Shown in pieces: positions 4,088-62,849 of a stretch of 64,000 bases of DNA. A model generated the notes under the pieces. It saw only the letters and a list, made by a program, of their open reading frames with translations. It was not told the origin of the DNA and did not search any database. How positions within the stretch are numbered: the first letter of the stretch is position 1; every line of letters starts with the position of its first letter. The DNA comes from a virus. The position numbers and the translations under genes were made by a program. The DNA lies in IMG/VR virus record IMGVR_UViG_3300028584_001238; one strand, given 5' to 3'.

Positions 4088-4756
4088 TCAATAAACGTGC
4101 ATTTCAACAACTTTCATTTCGTCAGGTGTTGCTTTGTTAAACTTAAACCCACAATCTTTTAGGTTAGTCGCAAAGCGTTTTGCTTCATGAAAGCTATCAT
4201 CAAAATAAAACTTATCACCGACAAACACTACTTTACCAAAGGGTGTTAAGAGACAAATACCATAATTGTAAGTGCCAACAGCGTCTTTAATAAAGTCTTT
4301 CTTAAATTTGAAATCAATATCGAAACTAAAGGACTTTTCAGCAGGGAACAGTTCTCTTAATTGATTAATTAATGTCGATTCATTAGAACGAAACGTCATC
4401 GTGCTTAAAAAGACAAAAATATTGAAAATTGAAAAGACACAGATACTTATAAAATTAATAAAATATTGTTCTGGTATTACGATAGATAGACATAGTAGTA
4501 GCCCACTGATAACGTGAAAAGTCATAGCTCCATTGGAATAAAACTTATCCCGAGGCATCATGAAAATATTCATCACATTCAAAATAACCGCAAAACCTAA
4601 CATCACCGAAGTGAAACCACCCACAACAATGAAGAACTTATTTGCGTTTACTGTGACATAATCAAATGAGACGTAAGCACAATAAATAGCACAAGCCAAC
4701 ATAATGAAGGATGCTAGATTTAATTGACGTAAAATGTTGTTCGGTTTCATAAACAC
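4088..4756 (-). CDS. 4-TM membrane protein with shared C-terminal motif
   Basis: paralog of 4840 and 5583; ends KVVEMHVY. Confidence 0.75.
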   Translation of the reverse strand: MFMKPNNILRQLNLASFIMLACAIYCAYVSFDYVTVNANKFFIVVGGFTSVMLGFAVILNVMNIFMMPRDKFYSNGAMTFHVISGLLLCLSIVIPEQYFINFISICVFSIFNIFVFLSTMTFRSNESTLINQLRELFPAEKSFSFDIDFKFKKDFIKDAVGTYNYGICLLTPFGKVVFVGDKFYFDDSFHEAKRFATNLKDCGFKFNKATPDEMKVVEMHVY

Positions 4757-4839
4757 CTCATGGCATTATTTAAATTAGAAGCTGATTATACACTATTCCG
4801 AATAAATATGACAGCCAAAAATAGCGTATATCATTGCTT

Positions 4840-5502
4840 TTAGATACAAAACATTTGCATAACGGCAGCGTCTTCCGGTGTTGATGTGTCAATGTTAATA
4901 TTACACGACATATAACCAGAAATAAAGTTAGCTATCTCATAAGTATGCCCATTAAGATAAAAGAATCGTCCATCAAAAGATAGATTTCCAAGTGTAGTAA
5001 TAATTTTATAAGATCTCGGCTCATACCGTGGAGCATCAGTAGGTTTCAAAAAAGTGTAATCATAATCAATCTTGAAGTTTTTGACATCCGGTAGCAATTT
5101 ACGAAGTTTTTGAAGTTCAGGAACCCCGCCCAGATTAGAAAGATTTGATTGCATTTTAAAGCACAGATATATATTAAAAAGACTTAATAACAGAGCAGGG
5201 GCTAACATGAAATGTATATCAAAGCCTTTCATTAAAACAGTATAGACAACTAATAAAAGACTGAATAAATAGTTTAAACTTGCCACTTTTGAATAGTAAG
5301 TAATATTTTTAATCTCTGCACGGCCATCCGCACACATAACAAGCATAACCAATGCTAAACAACCTGTTACTACAATGCCAATAATATCTGATTCCACAAT
5401 ACCTGAGTTAGCTATTCCAAAAAAAATAGAAAAAATAATAGCCATCAAAGACACAGAATAGGAGACAAACAAACGTTGACAAAAAAATATAATTTTATTC
5501 AT
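4840..5502 (-). CDS. 4-TM membrane protein with shared C-terminal motif
   Basis: paralog; ends AVMQMFCI. Confidence 0.75.
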   Translation of the reverse strand: MNKIIFFCQRLFVSYSVSLMAIIFSIFFGIANSGIVESDIIGIVVTGCLALVMLVMCADGRAEIKNITYYSKVASLNYLFSLLLVVYTVLMKGFDIHFMLAPALLLSLFNIYLCFKMQSNLSNLGGVPELQKLRKLLPDVKNFKIDYDYTFLKPTDAPRYEPRSYKIITTLGNLSFDGRFFYLNGHTYEIANFISGYMSCNINIDTSTPEDAAVMQMFCI

Positions 5503-5582
5503 CCTTAGTTCTCTCATTAAACCCTTGGATACCCCTTCCTTCAGGTAGGGGTTGTTTACAAATCAATCCTTATCTAACGTAA

Positions 5583-6260
5583 TTAATATCTGATCATTTC
5601 AAACAGTTTAAAATCATCATCAGTGGCGGTATTTAAATCTAAATCATGGGTTTCAAAATATTTAGTGAGATCATACAAATCATAATCGACACCATTGACA
5701 CAAATTTTGTCAAAATAGACTGTTACCAAACCCACGGGCATCAACACATGTAATTTTTCTCCCATCGACAGTTTGAAATTGAAACCAGATTTCAATGATG
5801 TCAGTTTACGCAATGCATTCCAGTCATGGTGGTAATTAGAACGAAAATTAAATAGGTGTAACAGAACACACAAGTTAAAAATATTGATAAAGAAAAACGA
5901 CATTGCCAATGCAACCATTGACCGATTATCAATAAAGAGAAGGTAAGGAATAAGTAACAGCACCCCGAGATAGTTAATGGCCGATGACCAGCTATAATAG
6001 CGATCTGGTAATTTAGAGCTTTTGATCATCCATAAGCCAAAACAAAATAAAAGGAATGAACTAATAGCATTAAGCGGTGTAAAGACAATCAATTCACGGC
6101 TTTCTGTCTGCAATCCATAAGCGAAGGCATACAGCATAGCCAACGAACAGAGCGAAGAAAAAAGCAAAGAAGAATTGATAAACTCTGAAAGTTTATATTG
6201 GCTGATGAGTGTCTTAATTTTAGTAAAAACACCACTGAGATGTTGGGTAGCTGCGTTCAT
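5583..6260 (-). CDS. 4-TM membrane protein with shared C-terminal motif
   Basis: paralog; ends KLFEMIRY. Confidence 0.75.
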   Translation of the reverse strand: MNAATQHLSGVFTKIKTLISQYKLSEFINSSLLFSSLCSLAMLYAFAYGLQTESRELIVFTPLNAISSFLLFCFGLWMIKSSKLPDRYYSWSSAINYLGVLLLIPYLLFIDNRSMVALAMSFFFINIFNLCVLLHLFNFRSNYHHDWNALRKLTSLKSGFNFKLSMGEKLHVLMPVGLVTVYFDKICVNGVDYDLYDLTKYFETHDLDLNTATDDDFKLFEMIRY

Positions 6261-6314
6261 AACGGCATCCTATGTTATAAAGAATACCTGATTATATCAT
6301 AAATATAGAAGGTT

Positions 6315-6635
6315 TTACAGCATTTTTTCGAGCCTATCGCATAAATCAGTAGCATCTACTACGGAATAGGATGTGCCGGAATTGTCAACATAAGTCGTCA
6401 CAGGAAATGACCAAATAGAATCAATTTTTAGCTTTGCGTAATCATCACAGGTTCTGGAAACTGCAACATCTTTGTAGATTTCATGGGTAATCAGATCTTC
6501 AAGCGTAACACTAAACCCATAAGGTTCATCGTATTCCAAAACAATAAACTCACGAGGTGCTTCACTGATTACAGTATCACCGCCACAACCAGATAAGAAG
6601 GCGATAATGCCAAATAAACTAATAATTTTAAACAA
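6315..6635 (-). CDS. putative lipoprotein
   Basis: signal peptide with lipobox LSGC. Confidence 0.7.
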   Translation of the reverse strand: MFKIISLFGIIAFLSGCGGDTVISEAPREFIVLEYDEPYGFSVTLEDLITHEIYKDVAVSRTCDDYAKLKIDSIWSFPVTTYVDNSGTSYSVVDATDLCDRLEKML

Positions 6636-6768
6636 TGTAAATCTCCATAATTAAAATAGTATAACTATTCATTTAAAAAAAAACAAGGACCGAAATGCTT
6701 GTTCTAGATGAATTGCCATCAAATTTTCATATTTTAATCACGGTGATATTATGACGATATCATAAGAA

Positions 6769-7260
6769 TTAACGAACTTTCATCAATTCAGTTTCTGGAG
6801 ACACAACCAGTGTTTTGTATTTGAATTTAATCACTGTTTTCAAACTGTTTTTTCTAAAAGTAAGCTTTTCCCAAATATTAGCAGGCACTTCTTTTGTTTC
6901 AACAGATTGAACAACACCAAGAAAGTCAATATCCTTGATATAAACTTCACGGTTGCGAGCATTAACCTGTGCAACAATTTCATCATTTTTTTGACGGCAA
7001 AGGTGAAATCCTGTGCGAACTTTATCTGCAGTGACACCACGAATAATGACAGTCTGTGCCATTTTTTCGGTAGCAGTAAAAATGATCTTATTAGGGTTTT
7101 CACTTTGCACAACCAAGCCATCTTCACTCATTTTAGTCAGCAAAGTAAGGATAGGTGCATAAATGTTCATTGCGTTTTTAGGGATCGAATAATTCCCATG
7201 ACGGCGTAAGGTCGTGAAAATTTTATCTTCAAGATTTTCGATTTCATGATTATTTGACAT
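6769..7260 (-). CDS. hypothetical protein
   Basis: GGAGG RBS and upstream TATAAT. Confidence 0.7.
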   Translation of the reverse strand: MSNNHEIENLEDKIFTTLRRHGNYSIPKNAMNIYAPILTLLTKMSEDGLVVQSENPNKIIFTATEKMAQTVIIRGVTADKVRTGFHLCRQKNDEIVAQVNARNREVYIKDIDFLGVVQSVETKEVPANIWEKLTFRKNSLKTVIKFKYKTLVVSPETELMKVR

Positions 7261-7329
7261 GATAAATGACCTCCCTAATTAAGAAGGCCATTATAACATA
7301 GTAGGACGAAAAATCAATAGACTAAGAAG

Positions 7330-7914
7330 TCATTTTAGAGATTTTAGCTGGTTTTCTGCGGCCATGTAAACGGCAAATGCTTCTGTGTTGCTCCACGATT
7401 CTGGTGCTGTCAAAGGGCCAGAAACAAAGTAACTGCCCTTAATGCCTTTCTGGACAATACAAGCCGTTTCAACAACAAGGGCTTTCCAGTCAGGTTGAAC
7501 GTTATCAGGGACTTCATAAAACAGATGGTTAAACGAAGCACGGGACAGATCTTGGAATGTAGGTATCTGACTCTCAAAGAAAAAGAATTGATTGGCCGCA
7601 ATTTTCTTCATGTTGGCTTGTTTGAATTTATCAAGACCTTCTTCAAACTTGATTTGCAAATGATAGGCATCTGTCATCTTTGGCATATCATAATCTTTTA
7701 GAAGTTCCAACGTTTGAAGCAATGACTGAATAGTGCTATTCTCACCAAGTTCACTTTCTTGATAATGTTCAGGATTACCATCCAAACACCCATCAGTTGT
7801 CCAATAACAGCCATTACCATTCACCAGAAAAAGTTGTTCCAACACTCGCCAACGAGTGGAAAAGGACAAGTTATATTTAGCAATGATTGAGTTGATGACA
7901 GTAATTGCTTTCAT
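7330..7914 (-). CDS. hypothetical protein, paralog of 7914-8492
   Basis: similar N-terminal (T-R/T-W...F...N.G) and C-terminal (ES..W) segments. Confidence 0.7.
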   Translation of the reverse strand: MKAITVINSIIAKYNLSFSTRWRVLEQLFLVNGNGCYWTTDGCLDGNPEHYQESELGENSTIQSLLQTLELLKDYDMPKMTDAYHLQIKFEEGLDKFKQANMKKIAANQFFFFESQIPTFQDLSRASFNHLFYEVPDNVQPDWKALVVETACIVQKGIKGSYFVSGPLTAPESWSNTEAFAVYMAAENQLKSLK

Positions 7915-8492
7915 TAGGTTGGAATCCTTTGTGGTTTCAGTTTTTCAAGTCTTTCAGAGACTTTAACATAGGCTGTATGATAACACACTTCTTGCCACGA
8001 TGCACTCTCAATAGGACGTGTAAGGCAATGATGTAGGCCATAATGATACCAAAGCAAATGTTTAACCTTTTCCAAGACATCAATTGCTGCTTTAAAGACA
8101 TCGACGGGATAAGAATCATCAATCAACCAGACCGGGGATTCATCCACACATAAAGCTAAGTCATCAAGCGAAGGTTTAAGGTATTCAACATAGACACATT
8201 TGGTGTTCACAATCACATCAATGTTTTCTTTGATGAAATCATTCATAAACAACTTCATGCCATAATCCAGCTCACCTATTTCAGTGACAGCCAATGTTTT
8301 GTAGAGTTCAAGATATCGCTCATTGATAACAGGGTTTTCTTTGACTTCAAAGGGGCATTGAATTTCGGAATTAGCAAAAGTAAACCCAGAGTTCACATCA
8401 AGAAAAATAGAGGCATAACACTGCCAAGTCGTTGGATAAAGATAGGGTGCAGAAAGGATCATATTTTTCAAAATGAGATCAAGACTGGTCAT
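7914..8492 (-). CDS. hypothetical protein, paralog of 7330-7914
   Basis: GAGG RBS; stop overlaps next start. Confidence 0.7.
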   Translation of the reverse strand: MTSLDLILKNMILSAPYLYPTTWQCYASIFLDVNSGFTFANSEIQCPFEVKENPVINERYLELYKTLAVTEIGELDYGMKLFMNDFIKENIDVIVNTKCVYVEYLKPSLDDLALCVDESPVWLIDDSYPVDVFKAAIDVLEKVKHLLWYHYGLHHCLTRPIESASWQEVCYHTAYVKVSERLEKLKPQRIPT

Positions 8493-8541
8493 GGTAGTTC
8501 CTCTAAGATTTCGTTAATTATAACACAAACGAAGAAAAGAC

Positions 8542-9045
8542 TCAATCTGGAATGAAGAGCTTGATATAGGCTTTACAAATATCGAGGTAAATGTTTTTAC
8601 GAACTTCCTCATAAGGTCGTCTACTGGTGTTAAAATAAATATCCATATGCATAGCATCAGCACAGGCAACCGGAGTTAATGCATAATGAGGGGCATTTAA
8701 ATTTTCAACCCAGCAATCCGGCTTCATTAAGTTAACATCCATTTTCATTAGCAATTGCATAGTCTCTCTGTCCTTGAAACAGACATTAGCAATGGAATCA
8801 AAAATAGAAAATCGGTCCTCAAATTGATCAACAGACATTAAGCGAGTGTTCGTTCTGACATAACTGACTAATTTATCTTCATATAAACTTTTTAACATTT
8901 CATGAATATCAATGAAACGTGATTTTTTATGAATAGCATAATAGCTATCTTCAGTCATCCAAGCACTAGAACCATAGGGATCTCTTTCAAATGGTTTTTC
9001 AGGTGTGTATTTTTCGACAAAATCATGATAGATAGGAAGATTCAT
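8542..9045 (-). CDS. hypothetical protein
   Basis: ORF with AGGA RBS. Confidence 0.7.
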   Translation of the reverse strand: MNLPIYHDFVEKYTPEKPFERDPYGSSAWMTEDSYYAIHKKSRFIDIHEMLKSLYEDKLVSYVRTNTRLMSVDQFEDRFSIFDSIANVCFKDRETMQLLMKMDVNLMKPDCWVENLNAPHYALTPVACADAMHMDIYFNTSRRPYEEVRKNIYLDICKAYIKLFIPD

Positions 9046-9048
9046 TTA

Positions 9049-9252
9049 CTAATTCCTTTCTGTGAAAAGAAAGATTTGATTAAAATCCTGAGATTTGACA
9101 GAATCGGTGTTATACCTTGAGTTTTGACCATTAAAATGATGAATACTAATACCAAAAATCATCCTACCAATAAAAATGCCAACAAAAGAAAAAACAGCTA
9201 CAAAAAGTAATTGATTGGATTTCTTTCTGGGCAATGGAATGGTTTTAGGCAC
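9049..9252 (-). CDS. small membrane protein
   Basis: GAGG RBS, GTG start, one TM. Confidence 0.5.
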   Translation of the reverse strand: MPKTIPLPRKKSNQLLFVAVFSFVGIFIGRMIFGISIHHFNGQNSRYNTDSVKSQDFNQIFLFTERN

Positions 9253-9330
9253 AATAACAACCTCTTAAAGTATTGAATACATCAACAAATAGTTAAAAAA
9301 AAGACCCACAATTGTGAGCCTTATATAAAC

Positions 9331-9414
9331 TGGTGCGGAAAGTGGGACTCGAACCCACACGCCTCTCGGCACTGGCTTCTAAGACCAGCGTGTCTACCAT
9401 TCCACCATTTCCGC
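9331..9414 (-). tRNA. tRNA-Leu(UAG)
   Basis: cloverleaf, anticodon loop CT-TAG-AA, long variable arm, GTTCGAGTC T-loop, encoded CCA. Confidence 0.95.
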
Positions 9415-9462
9415 GATTTGATAATTATAGTGTAACACCAACATAAAGTCAACTATTTTATT

Positions 9463-9936
9463 TTAATTGTAGTAAAATTCTATCTTATTTTTATTGTAAG
9501 TGTAATCAATGTTGGTCAATTTAAATTTGTATTTTCGAATCAATGCTGCAAAACTTGGAACAAGATCTTGCGACATCGAAATCATCGGTTTTCTAGTGCC
9601 AAGGTATTCAAAAGCCAACTCAAACAATTCAGTAGCCACCCCTTGTTTACGATATTCAGGCAGCACAACAATGTTACAAATTTTCTTTTCGCCATCTGTG
9701 TCTTTCAAAATAAGAATACCGGCAATATTATTTCCATCCATAGCCAGAATAATCTCACGACGAACGTCTTCCATCAAAACTTCAACGAAGATTTTACCAA
9801 ACCAGTCGTCAAAATTAGGGTATTTGATTTCCATCGTCTTGAATACATCAAGAATGGTGTCTTTGAGTTTATAACTTTGAATACCCAATGCACTAGCCAC
9901 TGCTGGTATATTGTTAGACAGAGAAATATACTTCAT
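9463..9936 (-). CDS. GNAT family acetyltransferase
   Basis: motif A VLPEYRKQGVATELF. Confidence 0.85.
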   Translation of the reverse strand: MKYISLSNNIPAVASALGIQSYKLKDTILDVFKTMEIKYPNFDDWFGKIFVEVLMEDVRREIILAMDGNNIAGILILKDTDGEKKICNIVVLPEYRKQGVATELFELAFEYLGTRKPMISMSQDLVPSFAALIRKYKFKLTNIDYTYNKNKIEFYYN

Positions 9937-14671: not shown

Positions 14672-15187
14672 TTATTTTTTATCAAATAATTCTAATTGTT
14701 CTGGAGCTTCAACTTCTAATTTTTCAACAGTATCTTCACTAAAAAAAACAGCAACCACCCCAATGGAAAATACGAATAAGGCAAGTGAAGCCAAACAAGA
14801 TATAATATTAATAGGAAGCCATTCCATCCCAAGCTGAAAAGGAACCATGAAGAACATAATTGAGCCAATAGGAAATAATAAGAAACCTATAAAATTAAGT
14901 AACGTTGAATCTTTGATTTCATTTTCTTCCATTTTTGTGAAAACACAAACTAACCAAAGAGATATAATTACCCAACCAATAAATATTTTTCCAAGATGTG
15001 CAAACAAGAAATCTTTAAGTGGTTTAAAAATGTTAATAAAAGAAATTATACTGGCATTAATAGATGCCCAATTGTCCTGAACAACACATAATAATAAAAA
15101 TATTAAATAAAGACCTGCGACAACAAGTGCTATATTGCGTGTGCATGAAAACATAATAGAAACTAAACTTTTTTTAACTTTATCCAT
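14672..15187 (-). CDS. membrane protein (about 4 TM)
   Basis: hydrophobic segments. Confidence 0.7.
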   Translation of the reverse strand: MDKVKKSLVSIMFSCTRNIALVVAGLYLIFLLLCVVQDNWASINASIISFINIFKPLKDFLFAHLGKIFIGWVIISLWLVCVFTKMEENEIKDSTLLNFIGFLLFPIGSIMFFMVPFQLGMEWLPINIISCLASLALFVFSIGVVAVFFSEDTVEKLEVEAPEQLELFDKK

Positions 15188-16578: not shown

Positions 16579-17238
16579 TTAAAACATCATCATTTTAGCT
16601 AATGAAATACGGGTGTTAAATTCATCTGAATTGAAATCATAGGCGGCTGGTATATAGAACTCAGGAACGTAACCAATAATATCATCATTATATTGATATT
16701 GAAGAAATTCAATCAACAAGAGTTCATCATCAATAGGAAGTATATTTTCTTTATTCTTACTAATATCAAATAAAAGTTCAGTTCCAGAATGAGTGTATCC
16801 AGAAACTTTAATTCGTTGTAAATCTAAATTAATGTCAAAGTCAAACCATATAAAAATGTCAAACGAATATTTTAATTTATCAGTAATAATGTCCAAGCCA
16901 TCACTGATGCTGAGGTGTAAAAAGTCATACTTTTTATCGAAATGAAGAGTGCAGTAACGATAAAGATTTTTTTTATCATAAGTTGTAAGATTAATTCTTT
17001 TAAGAATCTCTTGCTGCTGTTCAAACTTTAAACTAATTGTATTATAGTCATTATATTCATAGAGTTCTAATTCAAAAATTTTTATATTAGAAGAATTTGA
17101 AATAATATATTTTGAGTGTTTGAAATGTTCGTTTTCAGTTGAATAATGGAAGTGTGAATCAGTTAGACTCTCCACAATTGATAGTGAAAAGCCTAATTGA
17201 CGCAGTGTTTGTTTAATTTTACAAACATGTTCGTTCAT
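16579..17238 (-). CDS. hypothetical protein with shared C-terminal motif
   Basis: ends ISLAKMMMF. Confidence 0.7.
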   Translation of the reverse strand: MNEHVCKIKQTLRQLGFSLSIVESLTDSHFHYSTENEHFKHSKYIISNSSNIKIFELELYEYNDYNTISLKFEQQQEILKRINLTTYDKKNLYRYCTLHFDKKYDFLHLSISDGLDIITDKLKYSFDIFIWFDFDINLDLQRIKVSGYTHSGTELLFDISKNKENILPIDDELLLIEFLQYQYNDDIIGYVPEFYIPAAYDFNSDEFNTRISLAKMMMF

Positions 17239-30743: not shown

Positions 30744-31367
30744 CTAGATTTTAACCATTTCAACCAGTTTCAAAACATTATCATCAATTTCATTCACTGG
30801 AATATTGAGAAATTTACCAATTTCATCAGCATAATATTCCAACATGGGTTCTCTGATTGATTCAAAATCTCGATAATAAACATCCACATTGAGATATTTA
30901 ATAGTTCCTTTCATTTCTGTATTTCTGTAAAATTTAGGCTGAACAGGTTCAGTATGAAAATTGACCTTGAGTCGTGTGGAGGTACCGATCAATTCTAATT
31001 GATAATAAGCTACATCATGAATACTGGTATACCCTTCTTTCAATACAATGTTTTGAATATTGTGAAGGATAAATTGATCAAAGAAGTTAGCGGCAAGAAA
31101 ACCCTCCAAACTATCTTCAATGACTTCACCCAAAAAATCAGTTAATCGTGTGACCAACTTTTTTACATGAAAATGTTTAAAAGGTTTCATTACAAGCGGG
31201 GTAACAAAATCAGCGTCCAGTTGAAAGAGCAGCACCGGATCAAAATTATGATTGTAGAAACTGAGAAGTTTTACGGCACAATAACGACCCACCATTATAT
31301 CGTGTTCCTTAGCGAACACAGTAAACAGTTCTTTAAAGCTATCTGTTTCAGCCGAATTGACATTCAT
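30744..31367 (-). CDS. hypothetical protein with shared C-terminal motif
   Basis: ends LKLVEMVKI. Confidence 0.75.
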   Translation of the reverse strand: MNVNSAETDSFKELFTVFAKEHDIMVGRYCAVKLLSFYNHNFDPVLLFQLDADFVTPLVMKPFKHFHVKKLVTRLTDFLGEVIEDSLEGFLAANFFDQFILHNIQNIVLKEGYTSIHDVAYYQLELIGTSTRLKVNFHTEPVQPKFYRNTEMKGTIKYLNVDVYYRDFESIREPMLEYYADEIGKFLNIPVNEIDDNVLKLVEMVKI

Positions 31368-33802: not shown

Positions 33803-34591
33803 ATGTATCTATCATTTCCAAATTACGATGAATTGTCAAACAACCCCAACCTTGCGAAAGACCAAGAAGGTAAAGTGTGGGAATTATTGTACGAAAAATT
33901 TGTAAAAATGAATAATAATCAAAATATCACAAACGAAGATATTCAAAGTAACCTTGGGATTTATGGAACAAATACAAAATTTTATAATACTAAGGATTAC
34001 TGTACAGTTAACTTTGCTGTTAATTTTTTCGATTGTTATATTGTAATACCTGTACATTTGTATTTTAATCAACATGGACAATATAATAGATGGCACTCAA
34101 CATATATGGGATCAAAAAATGATTTAAATTTAATGAATCTTTTAAATATTAATCATTTTAATGACGTTCTATCTAAATTAGAATTTTCATTAGATGATGA
34201 AAACAATAAAACGGTGTATGAAATTATCAAAGAAAATTACATTAAAACACCAGAATATCCAAAGATAAGAACTACTTTAAAATATCGTTTTGACACTGAA
34301 CATAAGGTTTATTTGCGTGGTTTTGAATCAAAAATAAACAACTCAAGTTCTAATTATTCAATGGAAGGTTTTGAGAAGTTTGAAACAGAACTCATGTTTT
34401 TAAAGTTCGTAAAACATGTCATAAATGAAAGAGACTCTGTTGATTCAGCCTTTATCAATTACAATGAAATAGATTTCACTCAATCAGAATGGATGCGGAA
34501 CGTGCATAAATACTTTTTCAGAAGCTTAACAGGTGACAAACGCATGGCATTCTTGGATTACATGAATGTAATAGACATGATAGCAATTTAA
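33803..34591 (+). CDS. hypothetical protein with shared C-terminal motif
   Basis: paralog of 34610; ends NVIDMIAI. Confidence 0.8.
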   Translation: MYLSFPNYDELSNNPNLAKDQEGKVWELLYEKFVKMNNNQNITNEDIQSNLGIYGTNTKFYNTKDYCTVNFAVNFFDCYIVIPVHLYFNQHGQYNRWHSTYMGSKNDLNLMNLLNINHFNDVLSKLEFSLDDENNKTVYEIIKENYIKTPEYPKIRTTLKYRFDTEHKVYLRGFESKINNSSSNYSMEGFEKFETELMFLKFVKHVINERDSVDSAFINYNEIDFTQSEWMRNVHKYFFRSLTGDKRMAFLDYMNVIDMIAI

Positions 34592-34609: not shown

Positions 34610-35419
34610 ATGAAATTATATTTTCCACATTTTAAAGATTTATCTATGAATAATAAGCTCAAAGACAAACACTTTGAAATTATTCGGGCCATGATGTGTG
34701 AAAAATTAATAGCGATTAACAATAATCCAAATTTAACGAAAGAGTTAATTGAAGAACATCTTGATTTAGTAAAAGATGAAACCTCTTTTGATGTATGTGG
34801 AAAATCAAATGATTGTATTCTCATTACCTTTAAATTTAACCTATTTGAATTGTTTGAATGCGAGTTTGATTTGCCTATTTACGTTTATTATAATGAAAAA
34901 GGTCAACAAACTCATTACAATGCTCTGTATAAGGGGGACTCACTAGATTCAACATTAATCCATTATCTGAACTTAAATCATTTCAACAAAGATAATAATG
35001 AATTAGAGTTTTATTTACAAAAAGATTTTTACGGATCAGCCTATGCTATAAAGCAGAAACACTGGGTGATCTTGTTGCATTTAAGAAAAATATCAAATAT
35101 GACATATTTCTTTGATAAAGATCATAAAATTTGCCGTAAGACCTTTGTATTGAAAAATATAGTTAAATCTAATAGTATAAGTTACTCACTCCACTCTAAT
35201 GGTGATGTTGAATCAGAAATGATGTTGTTAAGATTTACTAACCACATTATGAAAGTAAAAAAAGATGTGGATTCAAGTTTTTTCGATTACGAAAATTTTA
35301 ATTTAGACGACAACAATTGGTTAAAAATAGTTAACAAGTCATTTTATGATAATTTTAATGGTGATAACAAAGTCGCTTTTATGGATTACTTAAAACTGAT
35401 TGAAATGATCGAAATCTAA
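34610..35419 (+). CDS. hypothetical protein with shared C-terminal motif
   Basis: paralog of 33803; ends KLIEMIEI. Confidence 0.8.
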   Translation: MKLYFPHFKDLSMNNKLKDKHFEIIRAMMCEKLIAINNNPNLTKELIEEHLDLVKDETSFDVCGKSNDCILITFKFNLFELFECEFDLPIYVYYNEKGQQTHYNALYKGDSLDSTLIHYLNLNHFNKDNNELEFYLQKDFYGSAYAIKQKHWVILLHLRKISNMTYFFDKDHKICRKTFVLKNIVKSNSISYSLHSNGDVESEMMLLRFTNHIMKVKKDVDSSFFDYENFNLDDNNWLKIVNKSFYDNFNGDNKVAFMDYLKLIEMIEI

Positions 35420-35527: not shown

Positions 35528-36157
35528 TCAAATATCAATCATTCTCATCAATGTCACTTGATCTGCAGTAAAGATGTTTTTACTAAGATCATAACAATCC
35601 TCAAATGTAATATCTTCAACAAAAGGAAATTGTTTTTTAATCTCTTTAAAATTCATGTTTTGTCCACGACGCCTAGCCAACATGTCCATGACACGCCATT
35701 CACCTTTCTTACGCTTGTCATAGATAATGTGAGACATCTCAAAGCAACCATCATCTGAGGTGGCATACTGAAACGTCCAGAAATCACCATCACGACGATC
35801 TACAACAACAGGTTGCATAGGATTGTCACGAACAGCAATACCATTCACATACCAGCTTGTAGTATTTAAATTACCATTTTTAAGATAAAATAGAGAGCAT
35901 GGAAGATTAGCTAGTCTATGAAAAATATGATGTTTTTCTGGCTTAATCTGAAACCCTTTGAAGACAATGAGATCTCCACTCAATTGGAAATAAATCGTAT
36001 GTAAATCGTCCAGAACATAAATATATTCATTTCGATTCTCTGGTTTAATAATTACTCCTGATTGAACAAACTCGTTAACAGGCGTGATAAAACGACCAGT
36101 TTGCTCTACTGAGAACAAGCATTCTTTTAACTGGTCAATGGTATTGATTAATAGCAT
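35528..36157 (-). CDS. hypothetical protein with shared C-terminal motif
   Basis: ends TLMRMIDI. Confidence 0.75.
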   Translation of the reverse strand: MLLINTIDQLKECLFSVEQTGRFITPVNEFVQSGVIIKPENRNEYIYVLDDLHTIYFQLSGDLIVFKGFQIKPEKHHIFHRLANLPCSLFYLKNGNLNTTSWYVNGIAVRDNPMQPVVVDRRDGDFWTFQYATSDDGCFEMSHIIYDKRKKGEWRVMDMLARRRGQNMNFKEIKKQFPFVEDITFEDCYDLSKNIFTADQVTLMRMIDI

Positions 36158-36166: not shown

Positions 36167-36814
36167 TTAAATAAGAATCATATCAATAATAGGTAGATAA
36201 GATTTAATCAATTTGCTTTTGTTGGTAAGGTTTTCAATTGATCTAACTTTACCTCTCAAAGCAGATGCAATTTCTGGATAGTCTGCTGCCAGTTCGACCA
36301 ATGTTATTTCCCGCCCATTGCGTTTAAAGGTCATATCAATAAGGTATTGGGATTGATCAGTGACTCTAATTTGGCTCACATAGGTTTTATCATAAACATA
36401 GCGATACTTAGCAATAAAAGATCCATAATTGCGGACAACACTTTCAGGTTTATTTCCACGGTTATAAGTATAAAATTGTTTTTCTTCCCACTCGTGACTA
36501 CTTGAATCAAAACGAACAGATTGAATCACAAATTTTTTCAAATTAAGGATAGTTACATTATCAATGGCATATTTTTTCAATACAACAAAATGATCAATAA
36601 TTAAGAAGTAAACACGAAAACCTTCATGGACAAAAAAGAAAGCAATAGCATCTTTATGATAATTTTTCAAGTTAGCCAATAATTTATCACACTCATCATC
36701 AGTAGCAATAAAGTCACTGATAAGAATATCAGGATCAACAAAAACCGGAGCATTGTAGTCAAATGCCACCGATTTCAAATCATCTGGAGTAACAACTGTA
36801 ATTGATTTTCTCAT
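36167..36814 (-). CDS. hypothetical protein with shared C-terminal motif
   Basis: ends PIIDMILI. Confidence 0.75.
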   Translation of the reverse strand: MRKSITVVTPDDLKSVAFDYNAPVFVDPDILISDFIATDDECDKLLANLKNYHKDAIAFFFVHEGFRVYFLIIDHFVVLKKYAIDNVTILNLKKFVIQSVRFDSSSHEWEEKQFYTYNRGNKPESVVRNYGSFIAKYRYVYDKTYVSQIRVTDQSQYLIDMTFKRNGREITLVELAADYPEIASALRGKVRSIENLTNKSKLIKSYLPIIDMILI

Positions 36815-51401: not shown

Positions 51402-52079
51402 TTAAATATTTAACATGTCCGTTAATAAACCTAATTTTTTATAATCATCATGTGTTGCCGATTCATTAATTTTCCATATCTCAAAGATCTTTTCCCGGTA
51501 GGAATAAAAATCACTACTTAAAAAATCACCTTGACCATTATAATTAAAAACCAATTGAATAAAATGAAATTGATCAAGGCTAGTCTCCTTTGTAATCAAC
51601 TGAGCCATTGGATTAGTGTCACCATTATCCTTAAAAGATGGTATTCTAAGTTCAATAGAAATTAAAAACTTATCTTCTTTCGTTAAATGAGTAAATGATA
51701 TAACTGCATATATTCGACTTAGTAAAGTGGAAAGCACATATTTACCATCAATAAGCGACCTAAAACGACAAGCATTAAAAATAGATAATAGATTATTAAT
51801 ATTTTTCATAACTTTACAAATTATAGGATCTTTAAATTTTGAGCATAATGTATTGTTTTCAACATAAAGCATGTCATAGAATGTTGTAACAACGCCATAA
51901 TCCATACCATATACATCTTGCATATGAACACTTGGATTAAATGGGCCTTTTACATTACATTTATGTTTAGATTCATATTTAGGATTTTTTAGTTCTATAC
52001 CAAAATTATCTAAAAAAGATTTATTAGATAAAATTATTTCTTTTTCATATAGAATTTCTTTTGAACGTGTTCTTTTCAT
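51402..52079 (-). CDS. hypothetical protein with shared C-terminal motif
   Basis: paralog of 52094 and 52824; ends LLTDMLNI. Confidence 0.8.
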   Translation of the reverse strand: MKRTRSKEILYEKEIILSNKSFLDNFGIELKNPKYESKHKCNVKGPFNPSVHMQDVYGMDYGVVTTFYDMLYVENNTLCSKFKDPIICKVMKNINNLLSIFNACRFRSLIDGKYVLSTLLSRIYAVISFTHLTKEDKFLISIELRIPSFKDNGDTNPMAQLITKETSLDQFHFIQLVFNYNGQGDFLSSDFYSYREKIFEIWKINESATHDDYKKLGLLTDMLNI

Positions 52080-52093: not shown

Positions 52094-52816
52094 TTAAATG
52101 GAAATCATATCCGACAGTAAACCAAGTCTTTTATAGTCAATCTCTTGGCAGTCTTCGGTAATTTCCCATACATTTATCATGCGTTTCTTATATCGTTGAA
52201 TATCATTGATAATACTGTCACCTGTGATTGAGTAAATACAATTAAAACCCGATGGGTCATAAAAATGTTGAATGGCTGTCTGTTTAGTCGTTAAATAATA
52301 AGCATCACCTGTTGTTCTAAGAGAAATTTTAAAACTAACCTGAATAGTAATGCTATCAGTTTCTTTAATGTATTTGAACACAAGCCAAGGTTTAACATTG
52401 GGTAAAACTGGCAAATATTCAATGTAATCGTTAGTCAGACGAAAACTTTCAGTAATGCCTAGATATTGATTAACATCGTTTAACATAGTCTGAATGATAG
52501 GCGATTTTAAGGCGGATGAAACGATTCCATTATCAAGCGTAATGATGTTTTCAAATGAAAAACAAACATCACCAAACCCAGATAAATAGATATTAACATC
52601 ATGCCCATCATCTGATTTTGCGGTGTATTCGCCAAATAAAGATGGCTCCATATCATGAATAGAGATATTCAGATGCTCAAAAATCAATTGTTTAACATCA
52701 ATAATCTTTTCAAGTGTTGATTTCTGAGGTGCAATAGGATAAACCATTTGTCTTAACGCTCGGCCATATGACGATTCTTCTGTTTCTTCGTTAGAGTTAA
52801 TATCATCATTCATCAT
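52094..52816 (-). CDS. hypothetical protein with shared C-terminal motif
   Basis: ends LLSDMISI. Confidence 0.8.
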   Translation of the reverse strand: MMNDDINSNEETEESSYGRALRQMVYPIAPQKSTLEKIIDVKQLIFEHLNISIHDMEPSLFGEYTAKSDDGHDVNIYLSGFGDVCFSFENIITLDNGIVSSALKSPIIQTMLNDVNQYLGITESFRLTNDYIEYLPVLPNVKPWLVFKYIKETDSITIQVSFKISLRTTGDAYYLTTKQTAIQHFYDPSGFNCIYSITGDSIINDIQRYKKRMINVWEITEDCQEIDYKRLGLLSDMISI

Positions 52817-52823
52817 TAACTCC

Positions 52824-53471
52824 TTAAATATTAATCATGTCAGTTAAATCACCAAGACGTTTGTAGTCAATATCACTACTATTTTCATCAATATTCCAAA
52901 CCTTTAAAAGTCTGGTCTTATAAGTTAACAAATCACTAAAATAGTTTGAACCATTTGCATGATAGACGGCTTTAAATCCAGACGGTTCATAACCATGTTG
53001 AATAATGACATCTTTTGTTGTGATGTAAATAGACTCTTCTGATTCAATAGTGGGATTTAAGTCAAGATGAATCATCATATTATCACACTCAACATTATAT
53101 TTGAAAATAATAGAAGGTTTGATATTGTCTAAAATAGGATAGAATACGTCTAGATCCCATGTTGTAAAACGTAAGGCGTCGAAAATATAAAAGAAAGAAT
53201 TCATCTCTTTTACAAACTCATTAATCATCGGATCATTGAGTTTGGAAACTAAAAGACCATTTTCAAGATGCAATAAATTTTTAATACCAATGTAGAGATC
53301 GGTTTGGTTTAAAGCATAAATATCGACTGGATAATCCCCAGAAGCCACATAGTCTCCGTGGCTTTCACGAGTGACATTAGTAAAGTCAATACCAAATTTA
53401 GCGACCATAATTTTCCGTGCAGACTCAATACTGGTAAGATGGATGGGATCAGATTCGTGATAGCTTCTCAT
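52824..53471 (-). CDS. hypothetical protein with shared C-terminal motif
   Basis: ends DLTDMINI. Confidence 0.8.
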   Translation of the reverse strand: MRSYHESDPIHLTSIESARKIMVAKFGIDFTNVTRESHGDYVASGDYPVDIYALNQTDLYIGIKNLLHLENGLLVSKLNDPMINEFVKEMNSFFYIFDALRFTTWDLDVFYPILDNIKPSIIFKYNVECDNMMIHLDLNPTIESEESIYITTKDVIIQHGYEPSGFKAVYHANGSNYFSDLLTYKTRLLKVWNIDENSSDIDYKRLGDLTDMINI

Positions 53472-54079
53472 ATCATCACCATATCATTAAGTGCAGTTAA
53501 TCTGACAACATCGTCCATTGTCATCTTTTTAGATTTACAGTAATCATGCACAAAATGGAACGCTTTATCAATTCCATATATTGATTGAAAAGCATCACCA
53601 ATATAGGAGATTTGGAATTCCTTTTGACACCCCGGCAAATCAATCTCATCCAGAAACACAAACTTTGCATAATGGGGGTAAGGAATAGCCTTAAAAATAA
53701 TTTGTGGGTTCTTGATTGTATAGGTGACAACAAATTTAAGTGTGAACTTAGTATCTTCGAAGAAATGGATATGTTTACCACCCATTGTCTTCAATTTAAC
53801 CACATTAAGCACCATAGCTCGCTCATTTATGTCATCAACAATGGGCTGAAGGTTAGAGCCAGCTTTCTTTAAAGTGAGATTTTGACCATCAAAGCCTATG
53901 CTTGATGTGAAAGTGATATTGGCACACTTATTAAAGATATAGATGCGAGCTGGGCCAAGCGATGTCTTGGCTGTATAAATAGTATGTTGATTTTTAACCA
54001 AACACATACTGGTAATATCAATGTCATAGACAGATTTCATACGGTCCACAACTGTCTTCAATTGTTCTTCATGTGCCAT
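53468..54079 (-). CDS. hypothetical protein with shared C-terminal motif
   Basis: GGAG RBS before MAHEE; ends ALNDMVMI. Confidence 0.75.
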   Translation of the reverse strand: MAHEEQLKTVVDRMKSVYDIDITSMCLVKNQHTIYTAKTSLGPARIYIFNKCANITFTSSIGFDGQNLTLKKAGSNLQPIVDDINERAMVLNVVKLKTMGGKHIHFFEDTKFTLKFVVTYTIKNPQIIFKAIPYPHYAKFVFLDEIDLPGCQKEFQISYIGDAFQSIYGIDKAFHFVHDYCKSKKMTMDDVVRLTALNDMVMI

Positions 54080-54135
54080 GCAATAACACTCCAAAAAGTT
54101 TAGTTGATTATAGCATAAAACTAAATTAAAGACAA

Positions 54136-55286: not shown

Positions 55287-56252
55287 TTAACACTTTGCCA
55301 TTTCAATGACAGGTTTAATATTGGCTTTAAAATATTCATAATATTCTTTTGTTAACGCCACCGGAACATTATCAATAATTTCATAATTTGATTTAAAGTC
55401 TTCAATAAATGGTAGTAAATATGAGACAATCGTTTTTTTAACATCATTATTAAAACGAGAATATTCATTAAAAATAATAACGTCATTGTGAATTAATCTA
55501 GTATTTAAAACAAAACCACAATAAAATTGAATATTCTCACTAATAATTTGTTCTTCATCATTTGAATTAATTAAACTCTCTGCAACATTGATTTCATGAA
55601 CTTTATATTGTTCTGATGTAAGTAGTCTAACTTGTAATTCAAGCTTTTTACTTTGATTTTGTTCAAATTGTTTAGAGTGAATGGTAGCCGTTGCCTTGTC
55701 AAATGACAGCAAAAAAGAAACAAAAGGAAAAATGCCCTTCATGCTTGAACTTTCATAACCAATTGATTTAATAATACTGTTCACATCATAATTAGACTCA
55801 TTGATAAGAAGATAACTAGGAAGATGATTTAACATATTTTTGTTGTGAGACAAATCAAGGGTAGTTTTGGATGAATCGATCAGCAACATATCAGCATGTT
55901 CTTTAAAAAATAACATAGATGTTTCGGTTAATGACGAATAAATATGTTCAAAAACAATCATAGAAATTGGAAGAATATTATGAAGGTCATCATAATACTG
56001 ATTTACATCTTTAATAAGTTCTTTTATTGTATCTTTTCCAATTATTCCACGACTTTTTCTTAAATGAACATTAATGCTCGAAATTATAATATCTTTATAC
56101 TCATCAACATTACTATGTGTTAAATGATAGATTTGAGCATTATCAAAACCTAATCGTTGGTTTGTTTCATCAATAAAAGACAAAAGGTTAGCAGACAAGG
56201 TTCTTTTAGACGCCTTCTTGAGAAATTGTTTGTTATGTTGAATGATTTGCAT
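55287..56252 (-). CDS. hypothetical protein with shared C-terminal motif
   Basis: ends PVIEMAKC. Confidence 0.75.
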   Translation of the reverse strand: MQIIQHNKQFLKKASKRTLSANLLSFIDETNQRLGFDNAQIYHLTHSNVDEYKDIIISSINVHLRKSRGIIGKDTIKELIKDVNQYYDDLHNILPISMIVFEHIYSSLTETSMLFFKEHADMLLIDSSKTTLDLSHNKNMLNHLPSYLLINESNYDVNSIIKSIGYESSSMKGIFPFVSFLLSFDKATATIHSKQFEQNQSKKLELQVRLLTSEQYKVHEINVAESLINSNDEEQIISENIQFYCGFVLNTRLIHNDVIIFNEYSRFNNDVKKTIVSYLLPFIEDFKSNYEIIDNVPVALTKEYYEYFKANIKPVIEMAKC

Positions 56253-59084: not shown

Positions 59085-59210
59085 AATGATTTATCCTCAT
59101 GAGTAATGGCCTATATTTTATCAAAATAATGAGTGCCTGACAAGTCTTTTTTTCGTTGTCAATCCTCATGGAATGTGCTATAATCCTTGAAATTATTTAG
59201 GAGATACACC

Positions 59211-59693: not shown

Positions 59694-59731
59694 TCAATTG
59701 CCATCAGCTCATGCATTAAAGGACTTTCATC

Positions 59732-60424
59732 ATGAAATATGATTACCGACATCCAGAAACACCAGAAGAAATTAAAAACGTGAAATCCAAGCTTTCTGTT
59801 GCAACGTATGAACAAAAAAACCTATTTGCCCGTTTCATGGCGGGTGATTATGAATGGGCAGAGTTTCAAGCTGATAATGGCTGTAAAACATTGGTTGAGT
59901 TGGGGTATTACATTTCTACTCGACCTCCAATTGAAGACATTATTGCAGCTTACTCTGATTTTGGGATTATTGCCGAACCCGTCAAAGGGTCTGCATGGCA
60001 TACTCAATCAATGGTAGCGGTCAATCATGATGGTATTCAATATGGACTGGATGATCGTGGTCGATATGCTGCTGAGAAGGATAAAAACAGTATTGAACAT
60101 GCTATCAAGCATTTTAAATTGATGAGCACTCACTACCATAACCGCATTAAGACAATTCATAACCATCTGGTATCTAAATCAAATGAGCCTATTTGGGTGT
60201 TAGCGGGTGGTGGTTATCAAATCCAAGCTTCATTTGGTAACAAGAATGGTTATATTGCTACGCTTGATTTGGATATGAATAGCTTTGTAAAAGTAGGTGT
60301 TGAAAATTCACAAAGGGCAAAAGTTATTAAAATTAAAAAATATGAATTATCTATGGAAGCTAAAAATTTGGAAGGGTTTTTTAGCGATTTTAAAGAAAAT
60401 AACTTTGTTTTAAAGGTTAGATAA
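59732..60424 (+). CDS. hypothetical protein
   Basis: 230-aa ORF with RBS. Confidence 0.7.
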   Translation: MKYDYRHPETPEEIKNVKSKLSVATYEQKNLFARFMAGDYEWAEFQADNGCKTLVELGYYISTRPPIEDIIAAYSDFGIIAEPVKGSAWHTQSMVAVNHDGIQYGLDDRGRYAAEKDKNSIEHAIKHFKLMSTHYHNRIKTIHNHLVSKSNEPIWVLAGGGYQIQASFGNKNGYIATLDLDMNSFVKVGVENSQRAKVIKIKKYELSMEAKNLEGFFSDFKENNFVLKVR

Positions 60425-61224
60425 TGAATGAATTAGAAATGAAAGAAAATTTTACATTTGACTTCTTTAATCCTGATTTCATCAGCGGGGGTAAAAAAGC
60501 CTTATCATTTTTGGTGCCAAATGAATTCAAGTTCTTTTTGAGTCATAAAATTATTAGTTGGCTAAATGTAGTTAATGAGTCAATAGATTGTGAATTTATT
60601 TTTGAAAGAGTGATGCCAGATGACTTTACATTACAAGGACAATCTCATTTTTCATTAAATATTAATACACATAATGGAGATGGGACTATTTATTTATATT
60701 ATGACAAAAACAATCAATTTACTCATGCCTGTTTATTATTTTTACAGAATGTGTATAAAAATGAAAATAAATTCCCTAAAAATAATAATCTATTTGAAAT
60801 AGAAATAAACATAAATAATAATATGGAAGTCGATAATTATATATTAACAAGGAAGGTGTCTTCATCAAATATACTGGGTTTGCAAATATCATATAAATTT
60901 GATTGTTTAGGTAAAAAATTGAAAGATTTTTTACTTTTAGATACTTATGAAAAAAACCAGAAATATGATCCGTACTTGTTGAGTTTTACAAAAGAAAATT
61001 TGAATGAACTAGATTTTTTTGATGACTTTTTTAACGAAATCATTGAGACTATTCTCTTGTCACCTAATGATTTTTTAGAATTAACAACACAATTTACAAT
61101 AAATAAAATAAATAGCAAAGAAGAATTTGAAATATTTTATGATGAATTAAGAGATTATTATAAGACTAAAAATTTATCTTATTTAGAAAATGCTTTGGAA
61201 GTTGTTGAAATGATAACTATTTAA
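60424..61224 (+). CDS. hypothetical protein with shared C-terminal motif
   Basis: paralog of 61243 and 62055 (FD...PDF); ends EVVEMITI. Confidence 0.8.
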   Translation: MNELEMKENFTFDFFNPDFISGGKKALSFLVPNEFKFFLSHKIISWLNVVNESIDCEFIFERVMPDDFTLQGQSHFSLNINTHNGDGTIYLYYDKNNQFTHACLLFLQNVYKNENKFPKNNNLFEIEININNNMEVDNYILTRKVSSSNILGLQISYKFDCLGKKLKDFLLLDTYEKNQKYDPYLLSFTKENLNELDFFDDFFNEIIETILLSPNDFLELTTQFTINKINSKEEFEIFYDELRDYYKTKNLSYLENALEVVEMITI

Positions 61225-61242
61225 TTAAACAGGATTATTAAA

Positions 61243-62031
61243 ATGAAAACTGATGAAACGGTAACATTCGATTATTTGAAACCAGACTTTTCTATTTTAA
61301 AAGGTAGAAGAATCGTTATGGTTAATCTTCAACCTGAATATCAATTTTATTTTAAACATAGGATTGTTCATTGGCTTAATCAAATGAATCAATCGTTTGA
61401 CCCAGAAACAAGTTTTGACGCGGTAAAAATTGAACGTTATATGGTAGGTGACAAAGGGACAGCCCTAATCGTCTATGGTTTTAAAAATCTTGCTGGCACT
61501 CTTCACTTTAATTATGACAAAGTTGGAAATTTTAAAAATATAAGTTTTTCAACTGAGGTTGGGATTTATAACAATCAGTTAAAGTTCCCATCTACCAGTC
61601 AATTTTTTACTGTGACTGCCGATATGAATACACACAATGAAATGCTCGATTATGTTGTAGAGCGTTCACTAGACATGTCAGATACCTCATATGACGATTT
61701 CATGGTAAAGTATTCGTTTACTGCTGATGGACAGAAAACAAAAGATTTATTAATTCTGTATGATTACAAATCGAAAGATGAGAACATGATTATTAATGCT
61801 GATGTTGAAAGTGTAGAAAACTTTGATGATTTTTTCAATAAAAATATAAATGTTATTTTACAATCATTAGAGACATTCATCGACATGTATCCACAATTTA
61901 GTATGGGTCTTGTAAACAACAATGAAACGCTTGACCTTTTTTATGCCGAAATGAAAAAAATGTATAAAGATGGTGTATTTAATAAAGGCTTCGATGAAAA
62001 TATTACGATTATCAAGATGATGACTATTTAA
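61243..62031 (+). CDS. hypothetical protein with shared C-terminal motif
   Basis: ends TIIKMMTI. Confidence 0.8.
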   Translation: MKTDETVTFDYLKPDFSILKGRRIVMVNLQPEYQFYFKHRIVHWLNQMNQSFDPETSFDAVKIERYMVGDKGTALIVYGFKNLAGTLHFNYDKVGNFKNISFSTEVGIYNNQLKFPSTSQFFTVTADMNTHNEMLDYVVERSLDMSDTSYDDFMVKYSFTADGQKTKDLLILYDYKSKDENMIINADVESVENFDDFFNKNINVILQSLETFIDMYPQFSMGLVNNNETLDLFYAEMKKMYKDGVFNKGFDENITIIKMMTI

Positions 62032-62054
62032 CTAGAAATGAAAAGGAATACAGA

Positions 62055-62849
62055 ATGACAATTAATGAAAGTGTTACATTTGATTATTTAAAACCAGACT
62101 TTTCTATTTTAAAAGATAAACGTCGAACAGATGCAGATATGTTACCAGAGCATATCTTCTATTTTAAACATAGAATTATTCATTGGCTTAATGAAGTTAA
62201 TGAAAAAAATGATCCAACTATTAATTTTGAAAACATCAAAATCGATCAATATGTTATTGGAAAAAATAAACAAGTAAATGCAAAATATAAATTAAAAGAT
62301 ATTGATGGACATATAATGTTCTTATATGATTATGATGATAATAATAATTTTATTGAAGTTGATCTTGAATTAAAAATAAAATCGGGTGTTTTTGATCATC
62401 TAAAATTTCCAAATTCAAGTCATTTTTTTGATCTTCAATTTGTATTAGATGAGAAAAATGAAATTGATTGTTATTTTATAAATCGACGCATTGATGTTTA
62501 TAAAAATGATACATTAGGCTATCTAATTCGATATGTATTTTACAAGGATACTCAAAAGAAAGATCACTTAGCCTTATTCGACTGTGTAAATCAAGAATCA
62601 TTAATACTAGACATTGATAATGGCTTTGAACTTTCTGAATTTGATGATTTTTTCAATGTTCACATCAACGATATCCTAAAATCCCCAGAAGCATTCGTGA
62701 CGATATATCCCTATTTCAGTGTGAAACAAGTAAACAGTAACGAAACACTAGAGGTTTTTTACAAAGAGTTGAAAGAAGCCTATAACAAGGGCATATTTGA
62801 TAATGGATTATCTGAAAACCTTCATGTTGTAAAGATGGCAGGTATTTAG
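62055..62849 (+). CDS. hypothetical protein with shared C-terminal motif
   Basis: ends HVVKMAGI. Confidence 0.8.
   Translation: MTINESVTFDYLKPDFSILKDKRRTDADMLPEHIFYFKHRIIHWLNEVNEKNDPTINFENIKIDQYVIGKNKQVNAKYKLKDIDGHIMFLYDYDDNNNFIEVDLELKIKSGVFDHLKFPNSSHFFDLQFVLDEKNEIDCYFINRRIDVYKNDTLGYLIRYVFYKDTQKKDHLALFDCVNQESLILDIDNGFELSEFDDFFNVHINDILKSPEAFVTIYPYFSVKQVNSNETLEVFYKELKEAYNKGIFDNGLSENLHVVKMAGI

Follow-up and report, generated by a model that had tools for sequence, protein, structure and literature searches.

What makes 17 proteins encoded on one stretch of DNA, in bodies that fall into several unlike groups, finish in nearly the same seven residues? The question is raised by a 64,000-nucleotide stretch of the IMG/VR record IMGVR_UViG_3300028584_001238 (the window, meaning that whole stretch), for which the original prediction, made from the letters alone, described a C-terminal signature with Met at position -4 and read it as a docking or sorting tag. 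The positions and last seven residues reported for the 17 open reading frames (ORFs) were all correct, and the rules drawn from them also stood, with a hydrophobic residue at -7, a polar or charged residue at -5 and Met at -4 in 17/17 and Ile as the last residue in 13/17. The lengths, given as about 200-320 amino acids (aa), measured 207-321 aa. Among the 123 non-overlapping window ORFs of at least 40 aa, Met occupied -4 in 20, compared with about 3 expected, so that an enrichment over background was present; the remaining positions from -12 to -1 had counts of 0-7 each. Given that Met makes up 2.7% of residues, the excess at -4 has a binomial P of 1.5e-10, uncorrected for paralogy. Three ORFs had Met(-4) beyond the 17 tail carriers. 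Those beginning at 6769 and 13951 were set aside as chance occurrences given their tail-profile scores of -12.6 and -10.8, and the third (3593..3865, minus strand; 90 aa; profile score 7.5) is a doubtful short carrier, one of its five orthologues having Ile in place of Met.

The prediction had spoken of different families; several groups are indeed unlike one another, but the 17 carriers are not 17 unrelated proteins and form nine groups instead. A membrane group on the minus strand comprises 4088..4756 (222 aa, 3-4 predicted N-terminal transmembrane helices, end VVEMHVY), its paralogue 4840..5517 (225 aa, 4 predicted transmembrane helices) and 5583..6260 (225 aa). On the plus strand, 33803..34591 (262 aa) is paired with its paralogue 34610..35419 (269 aa, 31% identity). 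The third group, on the minus strand, is a tandem array of 51402..52079 (225 aa), 52094..52816 (240 aa) and 52824..53471 (215 aa), to which 53468..54094 (208 aa) is linked only via relatives. The fourth, on the plus strand, holds 60424..61224 (266 aa), which is absent from the contigs of two public runs, 61243..62031 (262 aa), whose exact sequence is recorded on a 1,851,360-base contig, and 62055..62849 (264 aa, 40% identical to its paralogue at 61243). The five singletons, all on the minus strand, are 16579..17238 (219 aa), which carries a widespread 60-residue C-terminal module (PE..IP.AYDF.S..F..R), 30744..31367 (207 aa), 35528..36157 (209 aa), for which the distant element G006 has a tailed orthologue at 39% identity, 36167..36814 (215 aa) and 55287..56252 (321 aa). 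Pfam and PHROG scans of the 17 gave no match above the cut-off and two weak matches. By eye, the body of 35528-36157 has HR..xP-type beta-hairpin repeats, which we take to be MORN-variant-like and for which there was no library match. Carriers turn over as whole-gene units: across window positions 60422-62893, public-run contigs omit 60424, omit most of 61243-62849, or loop back one gene. Contigs from RNA libraries span much of 61243 in one study, although contigs cannot show transcription.

In four close IMG/VR records (G001-G004, 152-193 kb, analysed whole; ORFs of at least 50 aa), Met(-4) was found in 61/306, 63/287, 54/266 and 43/245 ORFs. A DNA-pattern scan of viral contigs returned 76 loci, mostly without tail enrichment, and the enriched loci came from the close clade or from two distant records, G005 (47/218 ORFs with Met at -4) and G006 (47/499). 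The ORFs that these have in common with the close clade number 15 in G005 and 67 in G006, at a median identity of 33-36%. The family-weighted consensus of 204 proteins in 25 families has Asp at -11 (0.39), hydrophobic residues at -9, -7 and -6 (about 0.8), Asp or Glu at -5 (0.65), Met at -4 (1.00), a hydrophobic residue at -3 (0.82) and, at -1, a hydrophobic residue (0.96) that is Ile in 0.68 and Tyr in 0.15, with Cys also seen. The Met column in this consensus is circular because the families were picked by Met(-4). We therefore rely on a held-out test, in which a profile built from the window and G001-G004 with position -4 masked was run on the two distant records. The masked profile picked 31 of 183 ORFs in G005, 27 of them with Met at -4, and 22 of 363 in G006, 19 of them with Met at -4. 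In total, Met stood at -4 in 46/53 picks, and shifting the end by 1-10 residues left 0-2. With the full profile, a score of at least 12 was reached by 209 of 1,944 termini (training set included) versus 10 of 330,891 internal windows. Chance as the source of the tail is rejected by the Met(-4) enrichment in the window and its relatives and by the masked-profile test.

The conservation acts at the level of the protein. Reciprocal best hits between G002 and G004 gave 41 carrier pairs and 78 other pairs; median body identity was 45% in the carriers versus 74% in other genes (P 1e-9), and the last seven residues were 71% identical in carriers and in other pairs alike. The end fell in the same column in 41/41 carrier pairs versus 61/78 others (P 6e-4). 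Synonymous change in the carriers was about as frequent in the tail (83/206 codons) as in the body (1765/4211 codons). Given that bodies drift, that the tail and stop hold and that synonymous change is free, what is constrained is the protein and the place where its free end lies. A DNA-level cause such as a start codon, a ribosome site or a repeat was rejected, since synonymous codons vary freely, and no conserved bases follow the stop codon. An alternative start codon at -4 was likewise discarded, as departures from Met in high-scoring tails are mostly to Ile or Ala. The tail is thus a strict motif at a fixed distance from the free C-terminus, conserved as protein while the bodies behind it diverge fast.

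How varied those bodies are was assessed on a carrier set defined by a profile score of at least 7 in the window and the six records, a threshold that excludes some true members, 16579 (score 3.4) among them. After removal of the last 30 residues, the 272 carriers fell into 75 BLAST body clusters. When 33 tail-less families were compared profile against profile, a single pair was significant, and profiles built from the 17 largest clusters failed to place the other carriers above non-carriers beyond a reversed-sequence control, the cross-family area under the curve (AUC), forward minus reversed, being 0.38-0.59. Profile links did join clusters 0, 2, 8, 15, 63 and 73, and also clusters 5 and 13. 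Full-length sequence homology among the carriers, as a single superfamily would have it, was not found. Lengths across the set ranged from 124 to 492 aa, and 22/272 carriers had two or more predicted transmembrane helices followed by a soluble end. By a crude hydropathy rule, signal-peptide-like N-termini were present in 5/272 carriers versus 127/715 other ORFs. Carriers are net acidic, with a mean of 2.5 acidic residues at -20..-10 versus 1.6 in other ORFs, and they are arranged in tandem arrays. A search of 1.84 billion proteins with a profile of the 60-residue terminal module yielded 138 clusters, one of them spurious, with the module almost always at the C-terminus; 112/138 had Met at -4, and the 130 long ones formed 36 body clusters. 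Among 125 anchored matches, 121 lay at the same distance from the end, and the -4 column held Met in 103, Ile in 13 and Leu in 7. Of 116 further proteins with Met(-4) or a tail-like end, 115 were without a Pfam match, and the one that matched does not show the tail pattern. A strict terminal motif is therefore carried by dozens of unrelated or barely related, cytoplasm-facing proteins with fast-evolving bodies. We considered a general degron for the whole proteome and found it unlikely, given that the recognizable enzymes of the element have no tail.

Structure prediction was applied to two soluble carriers. The model of 16579 (pLDDT 84) has N-terminal helices, a beta-meander, C-terminal helices and a tail helix at residues 205-218, the tail region being the least confident part (pLDDT 62-71). 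That of 61243 (pLDDT 85) has an N-terminal helix, a nine-strand beta-meander, four C-terminal helices and a tail helix at 250-261. The tail is thus predicted to be a helix behind a beta-meander, and both models follow the same order of elements (helix/beta-meander/helix), as compared by layout. Foldseek returned no match to either model at an E value of 0.001 or below. Other fold searches gave best Z scores of 5.3, 5.0 (an immunity protein; 82 residues, root-mean-square deviation 3.2) and 5.9 (cystatin-like), values that common arrangements also reach, and the two models have several weak beta-meander matches in common. In the ESM Atlas, one search was without a usable match and another gave a best value of 0.90, to unnamed clusters.

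What kind of element encodes these proteins? Three window proteins are recorded letter for letter on the 1,851,360-base contig, and cluster mates lie on contigs of 1,917,244, 1,859,102 and 1,843,594 bases, with another relative on one of 1,539,155 bases. A locus from the 1,859,102-base contig (L046) is identical to G004, and for this reason the records labeled provirus are taken to be cut-outs of larger replicons. Carriers of the 60-residue module on the 1.84-, 1.92- and 1.54-Mb contigs include some unlike any examined stretch; the tail therefore extends beyond these stretches. The DNA that we examined amounts to 150-290 kb per record, or about one-tenth of a replicon, and this scope applies to the gene content that follows. 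The window has a GC content of 34.5%. In one scan, Pfam matches were obtained for 27 of 145 mostly untagged proteins, among them T4-type RNA ligases, NAD kinase, Sir2, TrpRS, ribosome recycling factor, signal peptidase, deaminases and TnpB; G005 and G006 add tRNA synthetases, a three-domain Pnkp, RtcB, ClpA, PilS and Shufflon_N, and G001 has a weak Shufflon_N match. No capsid, portal, terminase or tail-sheath family was found among 388 proteins scanned with Pfam, and no ribosomal protein or rRNA gene among the scanned ORFs.

This gene content recalls the pMEGA megaplasmids of Enterobacteriaceae, which are described as 1.33-1.58 Mb in size, 26-29% in GC and about 80% hypothetical, and as having phage-like accessory genes in common while lacking phage structural genes (bioRxiv 10.1101/2025.09.30.679422, PMC12633466). 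The Pnkp, RNA ligase, NAD kinase, Shufflon_N, ClpA, FtsH-like and TnpB genes of the relatives all belong to core or multicopy families named in that report; PilS and the tRNA synthetases are not among the families named there. By domain content, a pMEGA-type accessory set was found across the window, G001, G002, G005, G006 and a further locus (L048), not all in one record. We consider it likely, judging by gene content, that the element is a pMEGA-like conjugative megaplasmid. Searches for closer kin found no megabase relative in PLSDB or among E. coli genomes, no Pnkp homologue on megabase contigs, no relative of the RNA ligase in GTDB and no further record past the ends of G002. A GTDB match to the tail module (32 residues, E 5e-4) was taken as chance. 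Cultured phages gave no DNA match to the window and no match to two carriers, and two other window genes matched there at 31-44% only. DNA runs containing the stretch came from food, groundwater, freshwater, peat and rhizosphere, a listing that leaves out the possible source run and the small-share runs X15-X20.

On this evidence the original prediction is supported in part, in that the tail is a register-fixed, protein-level C-terminal tag on many bodies; the reader of the tag was not found. We regard the tail as probably a cytoplasmic docking tag that is read in trans. Our preferred explanation, to which we assign a probability of roughly 0.38, is that it may act as an export signal for a Dot/Icm-type (type IVB) secretion system. 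The conserved tail would dock the carriers on the substrate-recruiting coupling complex, the system would deliver them into recipient cells, and the variable bodies might there bind variable host or competitor targets, providing counter-defense or immunity during establishment in a new host. Such a scheme would need one constant reader encoded by the element, and the type IVB coupling complex would be the obvious candidate because the replicon is of the pMEGA kind; pMEGA4 is reported to carry a Dot/Icm system with T4CP, DotM, DotN and IcmW (PMC12633466). Dot/Icm signals are described as C-terminal, with a hydrophobic residue at the extreme end and an acidic block, and include the RalF-type hydrophobic end, the E-block read by DotM and the FxxxLxxxK motif read by LvgA (PMC7251119). 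The carriers have the expected extreme hydrophobicity (family-weighted 1.00 at -4, 0.82 at -3 and 0.96 at -1) and, by the counts above, rarely a Sec signal peptide. FxxxLxxxK occurred in 11/272 carriers versus 6/715 others, uncorrected for paralogy. Since the carriers sit on a plasmid-like replicon, bacterial targets would be the more likely ones, and the XVIPCD proteins offer a bacterium-to-bacterium precedent for type IV delivery (PMC10025392).

Several observations weigh against this explanation. The E-block motif EExxE was not enriched, being found in 2/272 carriers versus 14/715 others, and the tail is strict, unlike published type IV signals, for which no strict consensus is described (PMC10025392). 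A lysine-rich tail class, which could be the real export class in the manner of positively charged type IV signals, accounts for 21/166 ORFs in G005 (loci L143-L152), 16/229 in G006 (loci L127-L142) and 2-7 in the others, compared with an internal rate below 2% and on C-termini that are generally lysine-rich; it was never seen on Met-tail carriers. In the model of 61243 the tail helix is well ordered (pLDDT 89) and no loose linker precedes it, as would suit a helix packed against the body. As for the replicon, IMG/VR labels all six records (pieces of 150-290 kb) provirus, a secreted-looking ORF among the 60 scanned matches a PHROG "virion structural protein" over residues 42-180, and the likeness to pMEGA is one of gene content. 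The examined DNA showed no gene for secretion, relaxase or Rep, so the reader is an assumption; the pilus side is represented by PilS and Shufflon_N only.

The alternative that survives best, though we hold it unlikely, is an adaptor library, an option that the original prediction also named. Each body would bind a host or competitor protein and the tail would hold it on an AAA+ unfoldase or protease encoded by the plasmid (ClpA/ClpP or FtsH) in the manner of SspB, with the membrane members serving FtsH. SspB itself is described as a substrate-binding body with a C-terminal anchor that docks on ClpX (PMC12373786), and carriers that are cytoplasmic or inner-membrane and diverge fast would fit such a role. 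Machines of this kind are encoded by relatives of the window, as they are by the pMEGAs, for which ClpA, ClpP and three FtsH are listed (PMC12633466). G005 has a ClpA (L149:13545-15842, minus strand) whose divergent N-terminal 170 residues form a separate clade, with 23 matches among 449 candidates and no Clp_N domain in precomputed lists, and L048 has an FtsH-like protease beside a second AAA protein. However, no AAA+ machine was seen in the window's own clade, ClpA was not found in the window or in what was examined of G001-G004, and the carriers show no clustering around the clpA gene of G005. Neither model has a disordered linker before the tail, helix running to helix into it. Two side observations touch these genes: the longest contig is 270,896 for one ClpA homologue and for a tail carrier alike, and the L048 pair (4579-9640, minus strand), a 946-aa FtsH-like protein (AAA plus M41) adjoining a 748-aa AAA protein, occupies a site that the window lacks.

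Also improbable in our view is one huge diverged superfamily, in which the last helix would cap a shared helix/beta-meander/helix fold with Met(-4) in its core and no partner at all. The shared layout of the two models counts for this, given that they come from families without detectable sequence likeness and have weak beta-meander matches in common, as do the profile links between some clusters and the tandem arrays. The single significant pair among the 33 tail-less profiles and the AUC differences speak against it, as do the range of lengths and the 22 membrane carriers. A core residue would moreover be expected to swap among Leu, Ile and Val and to tolerate extension, but Met was kept in 103/125 at one position, next to mixed neighboring columns and with the stop fixed. 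The original prediction had named full-length homology with a helix buried in one fold as what would undo it; this fails by sequence and for the membrane members, but could still hold for the soluble majority, since two soluble families have the same predicted layout.

Virion packaging or ejection was among the options of the original prediction, but with a replicon of about 1.85 Mb that resembles a conjugative megaplasmid this phage frame is probably mistaken, and we give very little weight to a tag for virion loading or ejection in a megabase-size phage. The dense small orphan genes, T4-type RNA ligases and tRNAs would suit a phage, as would the provirus label and the one PHROG match mentioned above; apart from that match, no structural family appeared in the 388 Pfam-scanned or 60 PHROG-scanned proteins, and PilS and Shufflon_N point to plasmid pili. 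The least credible alternative is a sliding-clamp-binding tail of the T4 gp43/gp33/gp55 kind that loads carriers on DNA, for although the T4 epitopes are likewise short, acidic-hydrophobic, C-terminal and interchangeable (PMC2988020, PMC6212786), the printed T4 motif is aromatic (LDFLF; PMC6212786) and not Met at -4 with mostly Ile at -1, no DNA-enzyme domain was found in the carriers (0/17, and 115/116 without a Pfam match), 22 carriers are membrane proteins, carriers are net acidic, the element's enzymes have no tail and no gp45 was seen in the examined DNA.

Other features of the element were noted alongside the carriers. The window encodes RNA ligases at 15313-16467 and 29578-30663, signal peptidase I at 47902-48483, tRNA-Leu at 9331-9414 and tRNA-Arg at 63259-63335, and G002 encodes a third RNA ligase, TrpRS and ribosome recycling factor. 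A TnpB-like nuclease gene (18553-20244, minus strand) has no match in G001-G004 and is probably a recent insertion. The minus-strand ORF at 14672-15187, hydrophobic and probably a membrane protein, ends in QLELFDKK, which we take to be a bacterial beta-clamp-like motif, and this end is kept in six homologues. For the minus-strand gene at 43844-45004, identity between the G006 homologue and the G003 copy reaches 81%, compared with a G006 average of 36%, which suggests a recent exchange between lineages; the homologue adjoins a Shufflon_N-type gene. An unannotated family of about 600 aa with an invariant G...WCI.R motif occurs in all three lineages, each element having one to three copies (L008:10837-12663, L008:12675-14393, L143:18135-19943, L145:1207-2970, L147:9688-11472, L138:13023-14924 and L139:16086-17972). 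Each of its genes adjoins an orphan of 460-570 aa, and Pfam and PHROG gave no match.

No published description of the tail was found in the literature, in a search that did not extend to the PDF supplements of the pMEGA paper. The main text of that paper has zero occurrences of "C-terminal" (PMC12633466), and the available part of a jumbo-phage survey has nothing on such a tail (PMC7824862). About one-sixth to one-fifth of ORFs in the examined regions of the close relatives obey one terminal rule, so that much of a proteome that otherwise resists annotation can be assigned to one functional class by a short motif. Bodies that race ahead while the tail stays constant are typical of proteins engaged in conflict. 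Should the reader be a secretion system, the tail would show how a megabase plasmid could establish in new hosts, and the role of plasmid-borne IcmW, DotM and DotN would become testable; should it be ClpA or FtsH, the carriers would parallel, in bacteria, the F-box-style expansions of adaptors. In both cases, replicons of 1.84-1.92 Mb exceed the pMEGAs as described (at most 1.58 Mb; PMC12633466), and parts of them have been filed as proviruses. A bolder and doubtful extension of the secretion reading is a 1.85-Mb conjugative element with a Legionella-scale arsenal of several hundred hypervariable orphans, some 500 carriers by extrapolation to the whole replicon, that would be injected by its own type IVB system into recipients under one Met(-4) code and disarm their defenses; the code would then be a genome-wide predictor of an anti-defense reservoir as well as a portable delivery tag.

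Compared with systems already described, the element resembles the pMEGAs in its megabase size, low GC, roughly four-fifths unknown genes, tandem multicopy orphan families and accessory set. It differs in being larger (1.84-1.92 versus 1.33-1.58 Mb) and richer in GC (34.5% versus 26-29%), and in that the largest pMEGA class is alpha-solenoid (PMC12633466) whereas the modeled carriers are predicted to be beta-meander proteins. Like the T4 gp45-binding epitopes of gp43, gp33, gp55 and ligase, the tail is an acidic-hydrophobic, amphipathic C-terminal peptide on unrelated proteins, but the T4 epitopes have LDFLF on a few DNA or RNA enzymes and the carriers are orphans, some of them membrane-bound (PMC2988020, PMC6212786). 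The XB peptide of SspB likewise joins a substrate-binding body to a C-terminal anchor, from one gene per cell as opposed to dozens per 200 kb and with a loose linker that is not predicted in the carriers (PMC12373786). The XVIPCD of Xanthomonas antibacterial type IV effectors is, like the tail, a constant C-terminal module on varied bodies, with a coupling protein as its reader, but it spans about 120 residues and accompanies toxin domains, whereas the tail spans about 12 residues (60 in one subfamily) on bodies with no recognizable toxin domain (PMC10025392). The tail is far stricter than Dot/Icm signals, with a fixed Met in a fixed register and no EExxE enrichment, and yet the likeness is broad: hundreds of unrelated proteins carry a short signal at the C-terminus, with hydrophobic residues close to the end and acidic ones upstream (PMC7251119), and membrane substrates are described for the Dot/Icm system as well (PMC11602083, PMC12981334).

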